Shown: positions 3,336 through 48,963 of the stretch, piece after piece | Layout of the letters: every line of letters begins with the position of its first letter | Position numbering within the stretch: the stretch's first letter is position 1 | Sequence record: PQ863255.1 | Source: Escherichia phage Ptacy1532 | Reading direction: 5' to 3' (one strand) | DNA: 64,000 nt | Position numbers and translations under genes: made by a program | Notes under the pieces: model-generated | The model's database searches: none | Told to the model about the DNA's origin: nothing | Seen by the model: only the letters and a program-made list of their open reading frames with translations

Positions 3336-5579
3336 ATGGCTAAGCAAAAATATAGTGAAGAGGTGTTGGACGAGTTACGTGTTGACCTTCAACGTCGTTT
3401 TAATTATGCTCAAGGCTACGTAGATATGGCTGTTAAGGGCTATGCTCGTGAAGCTTGGGAATATTTCTATGGTAACTTACCTGCACCAGTAACTGCTGGC
3501 AGCTCTAGTTGGGTAGATCGTACTGTTTGGGAATCTGTTAACGGTACATTGCAAGATATTATTAACGTATTCTGTTCTGGTGATGAAGCAGTTACTTTCG
3601 TAGCTGACAACCAACAGGATTCTGATGCTGCTGATGTAGCAACTAAATTAGTTAACCAAATTCTTCTGCGTGACAATCCGGGATACAACATTATCTCTTC
3701 TGCTGCACAAGAATGTCTGGTTACTCGCAACTCTTTTATCAAATATTATTGGGATGAGCAAACTTCTACTCAAACTGAGGAAGCTGAAGGTGTACCACCG
3801 GAAGCATTGGCTGCATATGTTCAGGGGTTAGAAGCTGGTGGACTCAAGAATCTGGAAATCTTCACTGAAGAAAATGAAGATGGTACAGTAGATGTTAAGG
3901 TTACTTATGAGCAAACTGTCAAACGTGTGAAAGTTGAATATGTTCCTTCAGAGCAAATCTTTGTTGATGAACATGCTACCTCTTTTGCAGATGCACAATA
4001 CTTCTGTCATCGTGTACGTCGTTCTAAAGAAGATCTGGTTGCTATGGGCTTCCCTAAAGATGAGATTGAAGCATTCAACGACTGGACAGACACGATGGAT
4101 ACTACTCAATCTACAGTTGCTTGGTCTCGTACTGACTGGCGTCAGGATATTGATGCTGATATTGGTACAGATACCGAAGATATCGCTTCTATGGTTTGGG
4201 TTTATGAGCACTACATCCGTACTGGTGTTCTAGATAAAAATAAAGAGTCTAAACTCTATCAGGTTATTCAAGCTGGTGAGCATATCCTTCACACTGAAGA
4301 AGTAACTCACATTCCGTTTGTAACCTTCTGCCCGTATCCGATTCCGGGTTCCTTCTATGGTCAATCGGTCTATGACATTACGAAAGATATTCAAGATTTA
4401 CGTACCGCGTTAGTTCGTGGTTATATTGATAACGTCAACAATGCTAACTATGGTCGATACAAAGCTCTTGTTGGTGCATACGATCGTCGCTCTCTGCTTG
4501 ATAACCGTCCCGGTGGAGTGGTTGAAATGGAACGTCAGGACGCTATTGACCTGTTTCCATACCATAACCTACCTCAAGGTATTGACGGCCTCCTAGGTAT
4601 GTCTGAGGAGCTTAAAGAGACACGTACAGGTGTAACTAAACTTGGCATGGGTATCAACCCTGATGTGTTTAAGAATGATAACGCTTATGCAACCGTAGGT
4701 TTGATGATGAATGCTGCACAGAACCGTCTCCGTATGGTATGTCGTAACATTGCTCATAATGGTATGGTTGAATTGATGCGTGGTATTTACAATCTTATCA
4801 GAGAAAATGGTGAAGTTCCTATCGAGGTACAAACCCCTCGTGGTATGATTCAGGTAAATCCAAAACAATTACCAGCTCGTCACAACCTCCAAGTTGTTGT
4901 AGCTATCTCTCCTAATGAGAAAGCAGAACGTGCACAGAAACTGATTAGCTTGAAACAGCTGATTGCAGCAGATGCACAGTTAGCACCTCTCTTTGGTTTG
5001 GAGCAAGACCGTTACATGACTGCACAGATCTTTGAGTTGATGGGTATTAAGGACACACATAAATACCTTCTGCCTCTGGAACAGTATCAGCCTCCAGAAC
5101 CTTCTCCGATGGAAATCCTCCAGCTTGAGATGACTAAAGCACAGGTTGAGAACGTACAGGCTTCTTCTCAGAAGATGATTGCTGATGCATTCGACCAACG
5201 TGAACGTACTACATTCGAACAGCAGAAAGCTGCGGATGAATTAAGTCTGCGTCAGGAAGAGTTGCAGTTCAAGCAAGAAAATGCAGCAGATGCTATGACT
5301 CTGGAAAACCGTAAAGAAGATAACAATGCTACTCTGGAACAAGCTAAACACAAATTAGCTCTTATGCAACAGCAGGTCCGTCAGTATGAATCTGTACTGA
5401 AAGAATTGCAGATGGTTATGTCTCATCAGGTAGACCAAGAGAAGATTGTTCAGCAATCTCGTGTTCAGGATAAAACTTTGGAACTCCAAAAGAAAGAAGC
5501 TAATGTACCTAAGAAAGAGCAACAAGCTACTCTCAAAGATTCACGGATTCCAGGCAAACGTCTTGGAAGTAAAAACTAA
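3336..5579 (+). CDS. portal protein (putative)
   Basis: 747-aa ORF directly downstream of terminase and upstream of scaffold and capsid; C-terminal coiled-coil; assignment by synteny and size. Confidence 0.6.
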   Translation: MAKQKYSEEVLDELRVDLQRRFNYAQGYVDMAVKGYAREAWEYFYGNLPAPVTAGSSSWVDRTVWESVNGTLQDIINVFCSGDEAVTFVADNQQDSDAADVATKLVNQILLRDNPGYNIISSAAQECLVTRNSFIKYYWDEQTSTQTEEAEGVPPEALAAYVQGLEAGGLKNLEIFTEENEDGTVDVKVTYEQTVKRVKVEYVPSEQIFVDEHATSFADAQYFCHRVRRSKEDLVAMGFPKDEIEAFNDWTDTMDTTQSTVAWSRTDWRQDIDADIGTDTEDIASMVWVYEHYIRTGVLDKNKESKLYQVIQAGEHILHTEEVTHIPFVTFCPYPIPGSFYGQSVYDITKDIQDLRTALVRGYIDNVNNANYGRYKALVGAYDRRSLLDNRPGGVVEMERQDAIDLFPYHNLPQGIDGLLGMSEELKETRTGVTKLGMGINPDVFKNDNAYATVGLMMNAAQNRLRMVCRNIAHNGMVELMRGIYNLIRENGEVPIEVQTPRGMIQVNPKQLPARHNLQVVVAISPNEKAERAQKLISLKQLIAADAQLAPLFGLEQDRYMTAQIFELMGIKDTHKYLLPLEQYQPPEPSPMEILQLEMTKAQVENVQASSQKMIADAFDQRERTTFEQQKAADELSLRQEELQFKQENAADAMTLENRKEDNNATLEQAKHKLALMQQQVRQYESVLKELQMVMSHQVDQEKIVQQSRVQDKTLELQKKEANVPKKEQQATLKDSRIPGKRLGSKN

Positions 5580-42958: not shown

Positions 42959-43615
42959 TTAAATCTCCAATGTTTTCTTCAGAGCTGCCCACGAGATTGG
43001 GTAGATCTTAGTCATCTCTTCGTCTACAGATTTAGCAAACACTCGAACTTCATATTGAGCGTGAGAGGAGAGTCGCTGACGACACAACTCAAACCATCCA
43101 TACAAAGAACCAGTCCACACCCACTCAGTGATCATCCCCTGAGGAAGAACAAATCGAGCTTGCTCTGGTGCAATAAATTCAATCAACTTGTCATATGCTG
43201 CTAGAGAAGCTTCATATGCATCATTAATCAGCATTAATGCTTCAGCTCGTTCTCCGTCGATGAGTTGAATCCCTGAACCTGCATGGAGGTCCGAAGGTCT
43301 CGCAAAAATCTCTTTAGGGATGAAGACTTCAACTGCTCCATCTTTATACCGCCGGGACATTTCGTTCCACGAGAATCCAACCTGATGCTTCTGTAGTTGA
43401 CGAGCGATTGCAATTGGAGCCTTACAACGAAAGGACACTTGTGGGTGACGGAACGGAGTGCAGTGTTTCTCTCTAGCCAAGAAATTAATCAACCGAGTGT
43501 CACGATCGTTCAAATCACCCTCTCGTACAACACCAAAAGAAACTCTTGCAGCATTAACAACAGTTTTATCACTGCCCATAGCCTCAATCAATGTTGCTTG
43601 CAATTGTTCATTCAT
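42959..43615 (-). CDS. thyX: flavin-dependent thymidylate synthase (ThyX-like)
   Basis: 218 aa; overall ThyX-like pattern with HCTPFRH and SRRY segments; call from motif resemblance only. Confidence 0.6.
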   Translation of the reverse strand: MNEQLQATLIEAMGSDKTVVNAARVSFGVVREGDLNDRDTRLINFLAREKHCTPFRHPQVSFRCKAPIAIARQLQKHQVGFSWNEMSRRYKDGAVEVFIPKEIFARPSDLHAGSGIQLIDGERAEALMLINDAYEASLAAYDKLIEFIAPEQARFVLPQGMITEWVWTGSLYGWFELCRQRLSSHAQYEVRVFAKSVDEEMTKIYPISWAALKKTLEI

Positions 43616-44087
43616 ACTTCAACTTCTCCTTGTTATAAGCAATCTCTGCTTCCTCTGGAGTATGGAAAGTTCCTAGATGCTTAGTCTTTCCATTAACTCC
43701 GATGATAGCTCTGAATTTTGTACCACTAGCCGTCTCTCTGATGTAAACACCCATTGGAAGTTTTCCAGCTTTTCCGGCTCTGTTGTATTGTTTTCTGTTA
43801 TGACAGTTTGTAGATGGGTCAACATCTCTTAGATTTTTAAGAGAGTCATCCAGTTTAATCTGGTTGATATGATCAATCTCAAACTCAGGCATCTTTCCAT
43901 AAGAGAAAAACCAAGCTAATCGACATGCTCTGTAAGATTTCCCTTCATAATAGATATACCTGTAACCTAATGTTGAGATACACCCAGCAATGTTCCCTGA
44001 TATTCTCCGACCTTTAGTATTCTTCCACCTAAAGACCCCAGTATCAGGGTCATATGCTAGGTCATCTTTTATTTTATCAGTTAACAC
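43608..44087 (-). CDS. HNH homing endonuclease with AP2-like domain
   Basis: 159 aa; EIDHINQIKLDDSLKNLR HNH motif; C-terminal GVY..ASGTKFRA AP2-like segment. Confidence 0.7.
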   Translation of the reverse strand: MLTDKIKDDLAYDPDTGVFRWKNTKGRRISGNIAGCISTLGYRYIYYEGKSYRACRLAWFFSYGKMPEFEIDHINQIKLDDSLKNLRDVDPSTNCHNRKQYNRAGKAGKLPMGVYIRETASGTKFRAIIGVNGKTKHLGTFHTPEEAEIAYNKEKLKYE

Positions 44088-44352
44088 CTAAAGCTGTGTC
44101 CAAAAATGCTTTCAGGTTTGCTTCAGTCTGCATACCAGAGAGGCTGTAATGTGCACCGCTGTTACGGTCAGGTACAACGAAAGCAGGGATGCTTCGTACA
44201 CCATACTTAACAGCTTGCTCACGACCATCACCTTCAAGGATGTTAATCTCTTCCACTTCTACATCAAACTCCTTAACAACCTTCTCAAAGGTAGGAGCCA
44301 TTGCTTTACATGGAGCACATTGATCACTATAAAACTTAATTACTTTAGACAT
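44077..44352 (-). CDS. thioredoxin-fold protein
   Basis: ORF track 44077..44358 (TTG); ATG 44352 preferred (GAGGA SD); CAPC active-site motif and cis-Pro region VRSIPAFVV. Confidence 0.65.
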   Translation of the reverse strand: MSKVIKFYSDQCAPCKAMAPTFEKVVKEFDVEVEEINILEGDGREQAVKYGVRSIPAFVVPDRNSGAHYSLSGMQTEANLKAFLDTALGVN

Positions 44353-44522
44353 TAACAATCCTCGTTAACAAATTCTTTAAGGTGGCGTTCTGTGGTAGGT
44401 ATTACGATGTAATCTTTATACCCTTGAGCTTTGGCTAAATCCTCAGCTATCTTTTTAGTAGCCCCCAATGCCATCACACACTGACAAACAATCACCGTGT
44501 GAGCTTTGTATTCGTCCTTCAT
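44352..44522 (-). CDS. hypothetical small protein (56 aa)
   Basis: Below ORF-track cutoff; stop overlaps thioredoxin start (TAATG); contains CQC. Confidence 0.25.
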   Translation of the reverse strand: MKDEYKAHTVIVCQCVMALGATKKIAEDLAKAQGYKDYIVIPTTERHLKEFVNEDC

Positions 44523-44772
44523 TTAAGAACCTTATGCAGTCAGGAGGTGAAGCAGGAATGGGATAACAACAGCTACGATAACCATGATGGTTGATGCTGT
44601 TTGAATCTCACCTTTCTTGTCAGGGGTTTCTTCGATAAGCTTACCAGAAGCCCAATAAATACCACCACCGATAAAGATAGCCCAAATACCCCATACGATT
44701 GCTGATAACATATATCTATATCCTTATAAATAAGTTCGCCCCACCTCGGGTTAGGAGACAGGGCGGAGGTTT

Positions 44773-45384
44773 TTAGTAAGACACATCACCACTTGAGTGG
44801 GACATGTTGCTCTTGACGAAGTAGCAATACTTGCCAAGACCTTCATTAATTTCTTGAAGCATACTCTGGTCAACTGGATAAGTGGCTAAATCGCCATCAA
44901 ACTCATCCATCTTCTCAATAATACACATCAAGGTCATGCACATATCAGAGAGCATACCGTCCATATCCAGATCAGCATTACCCTCTGAGAACCAAGCATG
45001 GGAGAGGTAGTTAGCTGCTGTAGCATCCACCTTAACACAGTGGTATCGCATACGCTCAGCAATACGATCTCCTACTTGTCGTGCGTAATCTTCCAGCTCA
45101 TCAAACATACCATGAACACCCTGAAATCCTGCACCAGAGACATTCCAGTGGTAGTTCTTAGCTTTGATATGCAAGAGTTCCATGTTAGCTTGTAAGCAGC
45201 TTAGGATGTGTTCTAGGCTGTTTCCACTAATCATACCCTGCATAGTTTCAAGGCGAGAGATTGAAAGCTCAGACCGGTCTAACATGTTATATTCTGCACG
45301 ACCAATCTCAGGTAAATCAAAGACATTCTTATGCATTTGGGTTTTCTCCATCAAGTTCAACTGAGTTAGCAACGTTACGTGCAA
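44773..45384 (-). CDS. Dps/ferritin-like protein (putative)
   Basis: 203 aa; KNYHWNVSGAGFQGVHGMFDELEDYARQVGDRIAERM fits the Dps pattern HWN..G..F...H...E.......D.IAER. Confidence 0.45.
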   Translation of the reverse strand: MHVTLLTQLNLMEKTQMHKNVFDLPEIGRAEYNMLDRSELSISRLETMQGMISGNSLEHILSCLQANMELLHIKAKNYHWNVSGAGFQGVHGMFDELEDYARQVGDRIAERMRYHCVKVDATAANYLSHAWFSEGNADLDMDGMLSDMCMTLMCIIEKMDEFDGDLATYPVDQSMLQEINEGLGKYCYFVKSNMSHSSGDVSY

Positions 45385-45658
45385 TATTATCCATTACCTG
45401 CTGGGTAATTACGATGCAGTTCTGTGGGTCTACTGACTTAGAACGCCCCATTTCAGGGTCATACACCTTAACTCGCTTAGCAGTTGAACCTGTAACCTGA
45501 AGAACCTTCAACAGATATCCCTGATTACCAATAGACCAAGCAACAACATCACGATTCTTGATAAAGCGACCAAGCATATCACGATGATAAAACTGTTGCA
45601 TCACCTTGGATTTTGTAATCTCTTCAGTGGGCGGGGCCACTTTACTCAAATCTAACAT
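45329..45658 (-). CDS. hypothetical protein (109 aa)
   Basis: ORF; AAATGTATAT promoter-like variant 40 nt upstream. Confidence 0.4.
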   Translation of the reverse strand: MLDLSKVAPPTEEITKSKVMQQFYHRDMLGRFIKNRDVVAWSIGNQGYLLKVLQVTGSTAKRVKVYDPEMGRSKSVDPQNCIVITQQVMDNIARNVANSVELDGENPNA

Positions 45659-45698
45659 AACTCTCTCCTGTAAAAATACAAATTCTTATTGTACTCTA

Positions 45699-45707
45699 TA
45701 TACATTT
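45699..45707 (-). promoter_or_regulatory. AAATGTATA motif variant, candidate promoter element
   Basis: One mismatch to TAATGTATA; intergenic, upstream of 45329..45658. Confidence 0.3.
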
Positions 45708-45731
45708 GAGAGTTACCATATCTACTACCAA

Positions 45732-45941
45732 TCAGTAATAAATTACTTTAGACATAAAAGAACCCGAGCTAGGGTCTTCGTACCAGCGATGAATGTCAGC
45801 ACTTTTAACAGTTCCTATTAGAGCTTTCATGTTCTTTTTAGCGACACGAGCCTCTTTGCGAGTGTTAAACAGTTTGATATTATCTTTACCTAAGTGTTGT
45901 TTCTGTTCCCAAACAACACGAACAGCCCACATCTTTTTCAT
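45732..45941 (-). CDS. small basic protein, tandem paralog 3 of 3
   Basis: 69 aa; W.VRV...F.TR.EAR..KK pattern and C-terminal YY shared with two upstream genes. Confidence 0.45.
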   Translation of the reverse strand: MKKMWAVRVVWEQKQHLGKDNIKLFNTRKEARVAKKNMKALIGTVKSADIHRWYEDPSSGSFMSKVIYY

Positions 45942-46150
45942 TAGTAATGTACCTTTCCGCTGATATAAATACGACCAGAGGAATACTCCTTGGCCTTATG
46001 GATACTAATGCTCTTAGTTAAGTCCATATTGAACATAGACTTTTTAAAATCTCGAGCTTGTTGACGGGTGGGCAGTGCAGTCATAGTCATACCACCTGAT
46101 GCCCACTTAATCTTCGCTAACCAGAACTGTCTCATAGTGATTGGTCTCAT
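45941..46150 (-). CDS. small basic protein, tandem paralog 2 of 3
   Basis: 69 aa; same family; 1-nt start/stop overlaps. Confidence 0.45.
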   Translation of the reverse strand: MRPITMRQFWLAKIKWASGGMTMTALPTRQQARDFKKSMFNMDLTKSISIHKAKEYSSGRIYISGKVHY

Positions 46151-46347
46151 TAATAATAAACCTTGCTGTTGGCAAAAAGAGCACCTTCGTTATTCACAAT
46201 AGCTTTTCCTATTGTAATCTTACCTGACAGACCTATCCCCTTAAAAATCTTCTTAATTCGACGGGCGTGCTCTCGAGTATTAACAAAATCTACAGATTTT
46301 ATATCACCTGTCTTGTTATCATGTACACGAACAATCCACTTTTTCAT
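46150..46347 (-). CDS. small basic protein, tandem paralog 1 of 3
   Basis: 65 aa; MKKWIVRV...TREHARRIKK...KVYY. Confidence 0.45.
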   Translation of the reverse strand: MKKWIVRVHDNKTGDIKSVDFVNTREHARRIKKIFKGIGLSGKITIGKAIVNNEGALFANSKVYY

Positions 46348-46550
46348 TTTACTAAACCTTTCATATAATCATAAAGAGCATTAGAAGCTTTACCCCATTC
46401 AAGGTGCTTCTTATCCATATAACTCTTACAGGTTTCTTTACTGCTTTCATCACAAATATCAAATCGATGACATGCTCGACCAAATACCATGGCTTTTAAC
46501 TGAACATCGGTAGTTAGATATTTAAGTTCTTGAAACTCTTCTTTAGTCAT
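46344..46550 (-). CDS. hypothetical protein (68 aa)
   Basis: ORF in operon. Confidence 0.4.
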   Translation of the reverse strand: MTKEEFQELKYLTTDVQLKAMVFGRACHRFDICDESSKETCKSYMDKKHLEWGKASNALYDYMKGLVK

Positions 46551-47084
46551 TTACACACCTTTAGATGCAACTACACCTTCAGAGTTATTATAACGACCCT
46601 TCACTGCATAGGAGTGTTCCCCTGCATGAGAGTGCTCAAACATGACCATCTGACCAACACGCATACCAGCACGAACTCGTAAGCTATGATGCTTGGTTAC
46701 GTTATGGAACTCAAATGTCAGCTTACTGCTGTTAAACCCTGCGTCTGCCCACCCGGCGTGGAGATGGTTCAAACCACAACGAGCCATAGACGAACGCAGA
46801 ACAAACAGACTTGAGATGTTATCTGGAAGATTAAACTCCTCCATAGAGTGAGCCAAGAAAAACTGACCCGGAGTGATAACCAAACCCTCTTCAGGAATCT
46901 TTACTTCTTTCCACTGAAGATTCTCTTTCGCATCAATATCAACGATGCCATCAGCCTGTTCTTCAACAAGGATAGTATCACCAATACGGATATCCACACT
47001 AGCAGCGTTAACATACTTATGCTCCGCATCCAGATAGCCATTGTCAATTACATCGTGCAGTTCAACACTTCCTAGTAAACTCAT
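46551..47084 (-). CDS. dcd: dCTP deaminase / dUTPase-family enzyme
   Basis: 177 aa; AASVDIRIGDT and GWADAGF match dCTP deaminase signature regions. Confidence 0.7.
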   Translation of the reverse strand: MSLLGSVELHDVIDNGYLDAEHKYVNAASVDIRIGDTILVEEQADGIVDIDAKENLQWKEVKIPEEGLVITPGQFFLAHSMEEFNLPDNISSLFVLRSSMARCGLNHLHAGWADAGFNSSKLTFEFHNVTKHHSLRVRAGMRVGQMVMFEHSHAGEHSYAVKGRYNNSEGVVASKGV

Positions 47085-47093
47085 TCTTATTCC

Positions 47094-48404
47094 TTAGTTA
47101 TTTGTTTCCATGTCAAAAGAGATTCCACGACCCGCTTCATCGGCAAACCGATCATCGAGACTGTGACTGACAGTATCAGCAAGTTCTTCATGAGAGGGAA
47201 TGTCAAGACTACCTACCACATCTTGAGCAGAAGCTTCATCAGTCCAGATAACACGAGAAGGGGCGTTGATATCACCAACAGCAAAACCCTGACCAGAGAA
47301 CTGGTGACGGCTAATAGTCAAACCATTTGATCGACCACGAGAAGGACTAGACATCCATCTCTCCATAGAATCACTTGTAATGCCAAGAGCTTCTTCAAAA
47401 GATGTTCTACGAGAAGAGCTTAGATTTCGTGCTTCATTTGCTCGGCGTCTTGTAGGGGCTACAAACACCCCTTCGATTGCGTTATGACGACTAGGCTCTT
47501 CTTCTCTACCAAGCAAATCACCACCCGTGTTAGTCGTTAAATTTGTCAACCCTTCAGACCAATACGCATAAATTTGACCAGACCCATGAAGACTTGACAT
47601 AATCTGAATCTCTTCATAGGGGATTCCAAAGAATCGACTCATGTCACGGTTAACGCAATACTGAGCACTTGTTGTATCCTCAATAAGAGAAACCTGACCT
47701 AATCCATTAACCAGATGACTAACTGGCTGAGGTGTAGGAAGGTATCGAGTTTGGGCCATATATTGATATGCAACAGATGGAGCTGAGAATCTCAACACTT
47801 GTGAATTAGGCCACTTTTTGTGAACGTATCTGATTTCACGACTAGAAACAACCACAGGGCAAGGAGCGGTCATAGCTAAATACCCATGAGGGGTCATGAA
47901 TAAGTTGTCAAGAGTCATCGCACCACGGCACATCATAGGAAAATTATCCAGAACCTCTTCAATAGAAGTAGGATAATTAAACATGAACTGGATACGAGTT
48001 CCATTCCACTGAAACTCAATAATATCAGTGAACGTTAATTGAGAAGTCCCTGTGTATGGCTCATCTGTAGCTTCAGCAAGAAGTGACGAATATTCAATAT
48101 CTTGTGACTCAAGCCACTCCTTCACGTTACTTTCAATTTCTCTTCCAAGAGCTTGCCAATGATCAGTTGATGTGAAAGTATTTTGGGTTCTTGGTGTTTG
48201 TCCTCTGACAATAAAGATATCAATGTCATGTGGAGCTGTGTTGTTAAGGACAGCATCACGAACAGCCCCACCAGTAATGATGGGACAGATACCGTCTGGA
48301 ATCAAGTTGTTGTTAATCAACTGTTCAATGAAGTGACGACCAACAGTGATATCAGGTTGTTGAGCAACCTTATCTTCAATTCGGTTAATCGGGATAACAA
48401 TCAT
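47094..48404 (-). CDS. nucleotidyltransferase, Pol-beta superfamily (CCA-adding / poly(A) polymerase-like head)
   Basis: ORF track 47094..48461; internal Met start preferred; ITGGAVRDAVL...HDIDIFI matches the GGxxRD...DxD head-domain motif; divergent C-terminal 300 aa. Confidence 0.5.
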   Translation of the reverse strand: MIVIPINRIEDKVAQQPDITVGRHFIEQLINNNLIPDGICPIITGGAVRDAVLNNTAPHDIDIFIVRGQTPRTQNTFTSTDHWQALGREIESNVKEWLESQDIEYSSLLAEATDEPYTGTSQLTFTDIIEFQWNGTRIQFMFNYPTSIEEVLDNFPMMCRGAMTLDNLFMTPHGYLAMTAPCPVVVSSREIRYVHKKWPNSQVLRFSAPSVAYQYMAQTRYLPTPQPVSHLVNGLGQVSLIEDTTSAQYCVNRDMSRFFGIPYEEIQIMSSLHGSGQIYAYWSEGLTNLTTNTGGDLLGREEEPSRHNAIEGVFVAPTRRRANEARNLSSSRRTSFEEALGITSDSMERWMSSPSRGRSNGLTISRHQFSGQGFAVGDINAPSRVIWTDEASAQDVVGSLDIPSHEELADTVSHSLDDRFADEAGRGISFDMETNN

Positions 48405-48405
48405 T

Positions 48406-48963
48406 TTACATTTTCCAATATAATGAAGGTGGGTCGTAAGGGTCAAATCCTGTGAGTTCACACAAGAAAAGATAAACCTTAACAGTTAAGTTAACGTCCT
48501 GTTCACAATAAGTAAACATATCTTCAGTGAAAGCATCCCATGCTTCCTCTTGCTCACCATAATCGCCCTTAAGTTCTCCTAAGAACTCACCCCACTGCTT
48601 CAAACCATGACCTCTTGGGCCACGTCTAGGGTCGCCTTTCGGATACTCAGGACTGTCACCAATACGGTCAGGTTTAAGATATCGACTAAGACATAAAGTG
48701 TCAAAGACGTTAAAACGATATTCAATTAGATTAGGATACATTTTCTTCAGAGCACAAAGGTCGAAGTCAATAATATTATGACCCACGAGCACATCTGCTT
48801 CTGTCAGTTTACGAATCCCGTCTTCGATTTGGTGAGGCCGATAGCCCCACCTTTCACCAGTTTCAACATCGAAGATATAAATACACCATACTTTAGTTAT
48901 GTCATCGTACAGTGCATTACTCTCGATATCGAATGCAAACACTTTCTTCTTTTTCTTTACCAC
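48406..48963 (-). CDS. 3'-5' exonuclease domain protein (T7 gp5 N-terminal-like)
   Basis: 185 aa; FDIESNAL (Exo I), [13 protein letters not shown] (Exo II), YCEQDV (Exo III); encoded separately from the polymerase domain. Confidence 0.7.

Follow-up and report, generated by a model that had tools for sequence, protein, structure and literature searches.

What do three small, abutting reading frames of similar size and charge do side by side in a compact phage genome, and were they copied for dosage or for diversification? We addressed this question for positions 45732-46347 of a 64,000-nucleotide stretch of Escherichia phage Ptacy1532 (PQ863255.1; the whole stretch is called the window below), where a preliminary description made from the letters alone had seen a tandem triplication of a small basic gene. 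By sequence identity, the window is a Kuravirus genome (a phiEco32-like podophage of the Gordonclarkvirinae), in keeping with the compact phage genome supposed at first: its region 44000-48500 shares 98% identity with Escherichia phage vB_EcoP_WFI101126 (WFI101126) and 90-93% with SU10, Paul, NJ01 and others. The three abutting open reading frames (ORFs) of 65-69 amino acids (aa), with one-nucleotide start/stop overlaps, were found where they had been described, with the correction that the genes lie on the minus strand. We refer to them as copies A, B and C:

46150..46347, minus strand: copy A, 65 aa, isoelectric point (pI) 10.3; ortholog of phi32_71, SU10 gp071 and WFI101126 gp075.
45941..46150, minus strand: copy B, 69 aa (or 64 aa from an internal ATG at 46135), pI 10.4; ortholog of phi32_70.
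45732..45941, minus strand: copy C, 69 aa, pI 10.1; ortholog of phi32_69.

A, B and C are true paralogs by every sequence comparison we made. Pairwise BLASTP gave E-values of 6e-7 (A/B), 4e-6 (B/C) and 4e-4 (A/C) at 28-34% identity, and the local alignment scores lay 10.1, 9.3 and 6.0 standard deviations above those of 2000 composition-preserving shuffles, none of which reached the observed score. Each copy also matches the PHROG 4939 profile over its positions 1-67 (E 3.8e-25, 2.2e-27 and 4.7e-27 for A, B and C, respectively). The alignment that had been proposed as a check thus finds the similarity significant, and the description of the three as small basic paralogs (pI 10.1-10.4) holds. 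Their mutual identity is 26-31%, and ten columns are invariant across the three: the initial M, W4, T24-R25, A28-R29, K32-K33, an Ile in strand β3 and the last Tyr. From the shared pattern first proposed, the motif TRxxARxxKK is exact in all copies and the C-terminal YY/HY is borne out by the endings VYY, VHY and IYY, while 'MKKW.VRV' is only approximate for B, which begins MRQFWLAKI. We also considered conversion of the C-terminal segments of some C alleles from B or A; the similarity amounts to only 6-7 of 9-12 residues, and we do not claim it.

The three ORFs are real protein-coding genes, because all of them are under purifying selection. The ratio of nonsynonymous to synonymous divergence (dN/dS; this and dS are Nei-Gojobori estimates) between the window and phiEco32 is 0.44 for A, 0.07 for B and 0.23 for C, and for genes nearby it is 0.05 (dCTP deaminase, DCD), 0.06 (a Dps-like protein) and 0 (a 109-aa protein). 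Compared with several genomes, the three copies have ratios of 0.07-0.44, and the family is kept across genera. That the ORFs or their resemblance arose by chance in the AT-rich DNA of the phage is extremely improbable. Only their small size speaks for such a reading, and against it stand shuffle z values of 6-10, PHROG matches at E ~1e-25, dN/dS below 1, the retention of the family in more than 90 genomes and the confident AlphaFold2 folds described below. With significant paralogy, each copy under purifying selection, and arrays of two to at least four copies in this slot in at least three lineages, the locus is identified as a tandem paralog array maintained by selection.

The family could not be recognised at first, and this is so for Pfam (no family for A, B or C at E ≤1, and only scattered matches at E ≥0.007 for 58 aligned relatives), for NCBIfam (sub-threshold noise only) and for PDB chains searched by sequence profile (one spurious match of 20 residues, E 0.14). 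It is not so for PHROG, where the family already has an entry, PHROG 4939, with its function unannotated: all 58 relatives match only phrog_4939, end to end, at E 1e-25 to 1e-28. PHROG 4939 is the family itself, and its entry carries no annotation and no account of paralogy, of two nests, of a fold or of an evolutionary pattern. The direct orthologs phi32_71/70/69 of phiEco32, gp071-069 of SU10 and gp075-073 of WFI101126 stand in the same order and slot at 62-100% aa identity, and all are annotated 'hypothetical protein'. The paralogy is not mentioned in PMC4281155, PMC9965538 or PMC8948821, and the svsR paper on kuravirus infection (PMC12803456) holds nothing relevant. What was already known, therefore, is a set of hypothetical proteins in more than 90 deposited genomes, grouped as PHROG 4939; the paralogy, the organisation in two nests, the fold, the charge pattern and the evolutionary behaviour are not described in the literature searched.

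We then asked how widely the family is distributed. Among 5.8 billion clusters, a word-seeded search picked out 91 proteins, and all those with a source name are Escherichia kuravirus-type phage proteins. An exhaustive search of 1.84 billion representatives with a hidden Markov model (HMM) returned only 21 clusters at E ≤1e-3, all of 65-79 aa, and no fusion to another domain was seen among these 21 representatives. By tblastn of 50,697 phage records, the family occurs in 94, all of them Escherichia or Shigella kuravirus-like phages; the neighbouring nucleotidyltransferase (NTase) has the same distribution, with 97 records in the phage collection. The small number of clusters in the exhaustive search and the shared synteny of the contigs show that PHROG 4939 is specific to one phage clade, the Gordonclarkvirinae and a few related uncultured phages. 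No member was detected in the Grimontviridae (GAP52, SE131, P59). Aeromonas phage LAh_8 and three IMG/VR contigs of 82-90 kb each hold a single weak candidate, significant only in small search spaces, which we regard as tentative. The family alignment contains no conserved stretch of 7-10 residues.

The genomic position of the array is fixed. It follows the NTase and DCD genes and precedes the first gp36 middle promoter, a conserved 109-aa protein (gp68) and the Dps-like protein. We located related loci with the conserved neighbour gp68 as the anchor, and we inspected the contigs of six of the most divergent representatives. Four of these six (P0105, P0100, P0104, P0110) lie in the slot NTase - DCD - [array] - 109-aa protein - Dps-like ferritin, and the other two (P0106, P0107) occupy a second nest between thioredoxin and ThyX. 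The family is thus surrounded by genes of DNA and nucleotide metabolism, namely DCD, NTase, ThyX, thioredoxin and the Dps-like gene.

The number of copies, which we counted by a family HMM scan of all fetched loci, varies between phages. In the DCD slot, Kuravirus (the window, WFI101126, SU10, phiEco32, 4E8) has A-B-C, and Suseptimavirus (EK010, SU7, ECBP2, two metagenomic contigs) has two copies, one B-like and one C-like, without A. Metagenomic relatives carry two (L016), three (L005, L014/15) or at least four (L017) copies in this slot, and one kuravirus from an uncultivated viral genome (UViG), L022, has B only, after an HNH endonuclease and a divergent DCD allele. The thioredoxin-ThyX nest holds zero, one or two further family copies. 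In the window this slot is taken instead by an HNH_3 homing endonuclease ORF (43608-44087, minus strand, 159 aa, Pfam E 6.6e-7), and two family HMMs run over the entire window detected no fourth copy. The triplication is accordingly correct for the window, where three copies are present, and does not hold as a fixed number, given the single B of L022 and the second nest beside ThyX.

Two observations concern the endonucleases at these sites. WFI101126, 4E8, ECBP2, EK010 and several contigs have one or two family members in the slot of the HNH_3 ORF of the window, and the megablast match to WFI101126 starts just past this ORF (query 84, which is window 44083), with no similarity detected across it. 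In L022 (IMG/VR UViG 3300045988_017452, 4208-4927), the HNH endonuclease, of 174 aa, follows the divergent DCD, and only B stands before the gp68 homolog. The locus of L022 suggests that co-conversion driven by homing endonucleases remodels the array.

The age of the copies bears directly on the question of dosage. A neighbour-joining tree places kuravirus B with the first of the two Suseptimavirus copies and kuravirus C with the other, and it gives A and the copies of the ThyX nest a separate clade each; B and C also cluster with the orthologs from metagenomic relatives. Because B and C pair with separate Suseptimavirus copies, the duplications predate the split of the genera, and this rules out a recent triplication for dosage. 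Tandem head-to-tail arrangement is what such a triplication, kept for gene dosage, has in its favour, and we consider it highly improbable: the paralogs are only 26-31% identical, whereas the adjacent DCD is 93-95% identical in aa between the genera (5-7% change), B and C have separate orthologs in Suseptimavirus and in the metagenomic relatives, and the copies are no longer interchangeable in sequence. Between the two explanations offered initially, diversification therefore stands and recent dosage does not; the identity of 26-31%, the separate orthologs and the phages elsewhere with arrays of their own all speak to this.

The three copies also differ in how they evolve. A and C are several-fold less constrained than the neighbouring genes, with 61.5% and 75% aa identity to phiEco32, respectively. 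B is the most conserved of the three and the sole copy kept in the reduced array of L022. B is thus the conserved core copy, and A and C are variable copies that can be absent. Compared with phiEco32, dS drops from 0.66 in C to 0.014 in the next gene (gp68), a jump exactly at the gene border; compared with WFI101126, A and C are identical and B has a dS of 0.47. From such dS jumps at gene borders, it follows that single-copy alleles are exchanged between phages like cassettes, and comparison of the loci shows that copies are gained, lost and swapped in this way. Within each orthogroup, the variability is concentrated in the β1-β2 loop, the β3-β4 hairpin and the stretch from the helix end through the loop after it; strand β1, the C-terminal tail and the part of the helix that carries TRxxARxxKK do not vary.

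The exchange of B can be seen at the level of the locus, where B (45941-46135) differs from its counterpart in WFI101126 (L001 3565-3759) by 11% of aa and the flanking copies A and C and the deaminase are identical or one residue off. This pattern points to the replacement of a single-gene allele. Different rates are also seen among the neighbours. The NTase, which has a PolyA_pol head (47094-48461, minus strand), evolves very fast (~34% identity between Kuravirus and Suseptimavirus, dN/dS 0.15-0.45), and the DCD that abuts it has 93-95% identity across the same genera.

The junctions between the genes were read from the sequence:

46344..46347, minus strand: ATGA overlap of the stop of an upstream 68-aa ORF (phrog_2347) with the start of copy A.
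46148..46152, minus strand: TAATG stop/start overlap of A and B, one shared base.
45939..45943, minus strand: TAATG stop/start overlap of B and C, one shared base.

The A/B junction TAATG is kept in all six kuravirus sequences compared (the window and five others), and this overlap suggests translational coupling. On inspection of the sequence, a canonical Shine-Dalgarno element at good spacing is weak or absent 5' of B and C, so that translation of the A-B-C cistrons by termination-reinitiation coupling is likely. The start of B may be at either of two ATGs. The Met that aligns with the N-terminus of the family (MRQFW) is encoded by an internal ATG, at 46135; this start yields 64 aa and is the one used in the WFI101126 annotation; the upstream overlapping ATG and its five codons, which give 69 aa, are kept in 6/6 kuravirus sequences, WFI101126 included. 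Upstream of A, the phrog_2347 ORF (46344-46550, minus strand), which contains Cys, lies between DCD and copy A. It is present in the window, SU10 and WFI101126 and missing from phiEco32, in which gene 71 directly adjoins the deaminase gene; it is thus an accessory gene of the presence/absence type that is chained to A by ATGA.

To describe what the genes encode, we modeled A and C with AlphaFold2. The model of A (47 sequences in the alignment) has a mean predicted local distance difference test (pLDDT) score of 78.5 and a predicted template modeling (pTM) score of 0.61, with strands at 2-9 and 16-22, a helix at 25-38, strands at 44-52 and 55-59 and a low-confidence tail. C (58 sequences) was modeled better (pLDDT 87.4, pTM 0.73) with the same order of elements. 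Each copy is therefore predicted to be a single β-β-α-β-β two-layer domain. Matches in BFVD at E <0.03 are family members only (from KBNP1711, EK010, ECBP2, SU10 and WFI101126), and these superpose on the models. The proteins are of 7-8 kDa with a pI of 10.1-10.4 and a net charge of about +9, and the pI of the whole family has a median of 10.1 and a range of 9.3-11.0. Family-wide, W, T-R, A-R and K are invariant and the terminal Y is nearly so; an Arg/Lys in β1, a His-Lys/Arg in β3 and a hydrophobic-x-Tyr C-terminus are also conserved. From helical periodicity, R25, R29, K32, K33 and often K36 (numbering of copy A) should form an exposed basic ridge on the helix, and the side turned towards the sheet should carry A28 and the hydrophobic residues at +3 and +7 from it.

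For the timing of expression, we searched for promoters of the phage sigma factor gp36, the consensus of which in phiEco32 is tAATGTAtA (PMC8948821). The following sites were found:

45699..45707, minus strand: candidate gp36-sigma promoter AAATGTATA, 8/9 of the phiEco32 consensus tAATGTAtA, corresponding to P68.
8594, 18749, 23980 and 33849, plus strand: exact AATGTATA sites.
33776, 40191 and 45699, minus strand: exact AATGTATA sites.

AAATGTATA lies in the 73-nt spacer 3' of copy C. Gene 68 is among six phiEco32 genes with gp36 promoters upstream (PMC8948821), and in SU10, CDS68 and lower numbers are middle genes and CDS74 and higher are early genes (PMC4281155). The position of AAATGTATA and the SU10 classes place the array last in the leftward early unit, directly ahead of the first middle promoter, and we infer the temporal class of genes 69-71 from this promoter position and the SU10 table. 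The seven exact sites of AATGTATA, the core of the gp36-sigma consensus, compare with 2.8 expected by chance in the window and may mark middle and late promoters. Two further features lie downstream. The 109-aa protein (45329-45658, minus strand; phi32_68 homolog, phrog_10984) has 100% protein identity across dozens of kuraviruses and is kept at 31-37% identity in Aeromonas, Proteus, Salmonella and Cronobacter phages, always beside the Dps-like gene, a constraint that is unusually strong for an unannotated protein. Directly after the Dps-like gene, at 44737-44765 on the minus strand, there is a hairpin of 11 pairs (7 G-C) with a T-rich tail that resembles an intrinsic terminator.

What could such proteins do? 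They are too small and simple for enzymes, and are therefore most likely non-enzymatic binding modules. We tentatively favor a polyanion as the ligand, with nucleic acid (DNA or RNA of the phage or the host) as the most likely one, because of the uniformly high charge, the basic helix that is invariant in all paralogs and the neighbourhood of DNA-metabolism and Dps-like genes. In this model, the basic ridge on the exposed face of the only helix would bind nucleic acid in the early-to-middle phase, alongside the DNA-metabolism and Dps-like proteins encoded nearby; specificity would be tuned between paralogs by the variable loops and the C-terminal hairpin, and translational coupling would give roughly equimolar co-expression. 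Several points weigh against it. Proteins that bind an acidic protein surface could just as well have a high pI and a basic helix, the residues of the ridge and of the open sheet face are placed by helical and strand periodicity and not from coordinates, and a role in host interaction or anti-defence would agree at least equally well with the fast evolution, the cassette exchange, the variation in copy number and the location where the early unit ends. The proteins are also not among the 34 found in the SU10 lysate proteome (PMC4281155), a weakly informative result as small Lys/Arg-rich proteins are hard to detect.

Nearly as likely as polyanion binding, and still only a possibility, is that A, B and C are protein-targeting factors of host takeover or anti-defence, that is, small inhibitors or adaptors that dock on acidic surfaces of host proteins (a toxin, a defence nuclease or a factor of replication or transcription, for example), with duplication and allele swapping tracking host variation. 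The array lies at the distal end of the leftward early unit, 5' of the first gp36 promoter, and the early genes of phiEco32 are thought to serve host takeover (PMC8948821). Copy dN/dS values 3-8 times those of the flanking DCD, gp68 and Dps genes, together with the cassette exchange, a copy number from 1 to at least 4 and the dispensability of A and C in L022, would fit such a role, as would the unexplained restriction-modification resistance of the Gordonclarkvirinae (PMC11990801). On the other hand, the basic helix and terminal Tyr common to all paralogs speak for a common class of ligand and not for diverse protein targets, and no match to known anti-defence proteins was found, with PADLOC (a collection of defence-system, not anti-defence, proteins) not scanned. 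Known DNA-mimic inhibitors of restriction are acidic, whereas A, B and C are strongly basic. Among the small early or middle accessory proteins of virulent coliphages, the antitoxin Dmd of T4 (PDB 5hy3_B), a structural match at 2% identity, is absent from the top 60 structural matches of the better model, C, and can be regarded as a functional analogy only; we know of no toxin partner in kuraviruses.

A single hetero-oligomeric complex, in which the open face of the sheet of one copy would be covered by another and coupling would supply A, B and C in equal amounts, seems unlikely. Phages combine their alleles of A, B and C independently of one another, the array holds one to at least four copies, A is missing from Suseptimavirus and L022 has B only; the independent assortment and the genomes with one or two copies exclude an obligatory A-B-C complex. 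Homo-oligomers or facultative hetero-oligomers are possible. A more specific form of nucleic-acid binding, which we consider quite doubtful, is that the family is an unrecognised class of mini DNA/RNA-binding proteins that work with the adjacent DCD and with the NTase, which shares their distribution and evolves equally fast. Such proteins might coat or mark phage DNA, or act as cofactors of the NTase, and might contribute to the restriction-modification resistance of the Gordonclarkvirinae, with the paralogs and swapped alleles reflecting an arms race with host nucleases. The BASEL study found these phages strikingly resistant to restriction-modification, with no known modification or inhibitor, and singled out the DCD/NTase locus as a possible DNA-modification module (PMC11990801). 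A link of the terminal Tyr to the phage ATP-grasp/amidotransferase genes ~7 kb upstream was also considered, by analogy with peptide-ligase systems alone, and dropped.

Phage-encoded DNA-binding proteins of the histone-like or nucleoid type, such as SPO1 TF1 of the HU family, and the neighbouring Dps-like protein of the phage resemble A, B and C in small size, strongly basic character and location amid genes for DNA metabolism. The DNA of the phage that uses TF1 is modified. A modification of the DNA has also been put forward for the Gordonclarkvirinae (PMC11990801). However, the HU fold is α-α-β-β-β-α, unlike that of A, B and C, and there was no sequence or structural match. The order of elements is instead that of the swapped-hairpin domains of AbrB and MazE, which are β-β-α-β-β in ~50-65 residues; structural similarity with the interleaved hairpins and dimeric barrel of these domains was not found for A, B or C.

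Taken together, the array is a lineage-specific expansion of small accessory phage genes and a genuine but fairly ordinary orphan family. If the proteins are simple nucleic-acid binders or redundant host-specific accessories, the finding would be an ordinary one. Kuraviruses are common coliphages of broad host range that are considered for therapy, and almost none of their early and middle accessory genes has been characterised. Very few sets of accessory genes are kept in every member of the group examined, and this family is among them. The distinction between the core copy B and the dispensable, fast-evolving A and C guides the choice of knock-outs and mutations.
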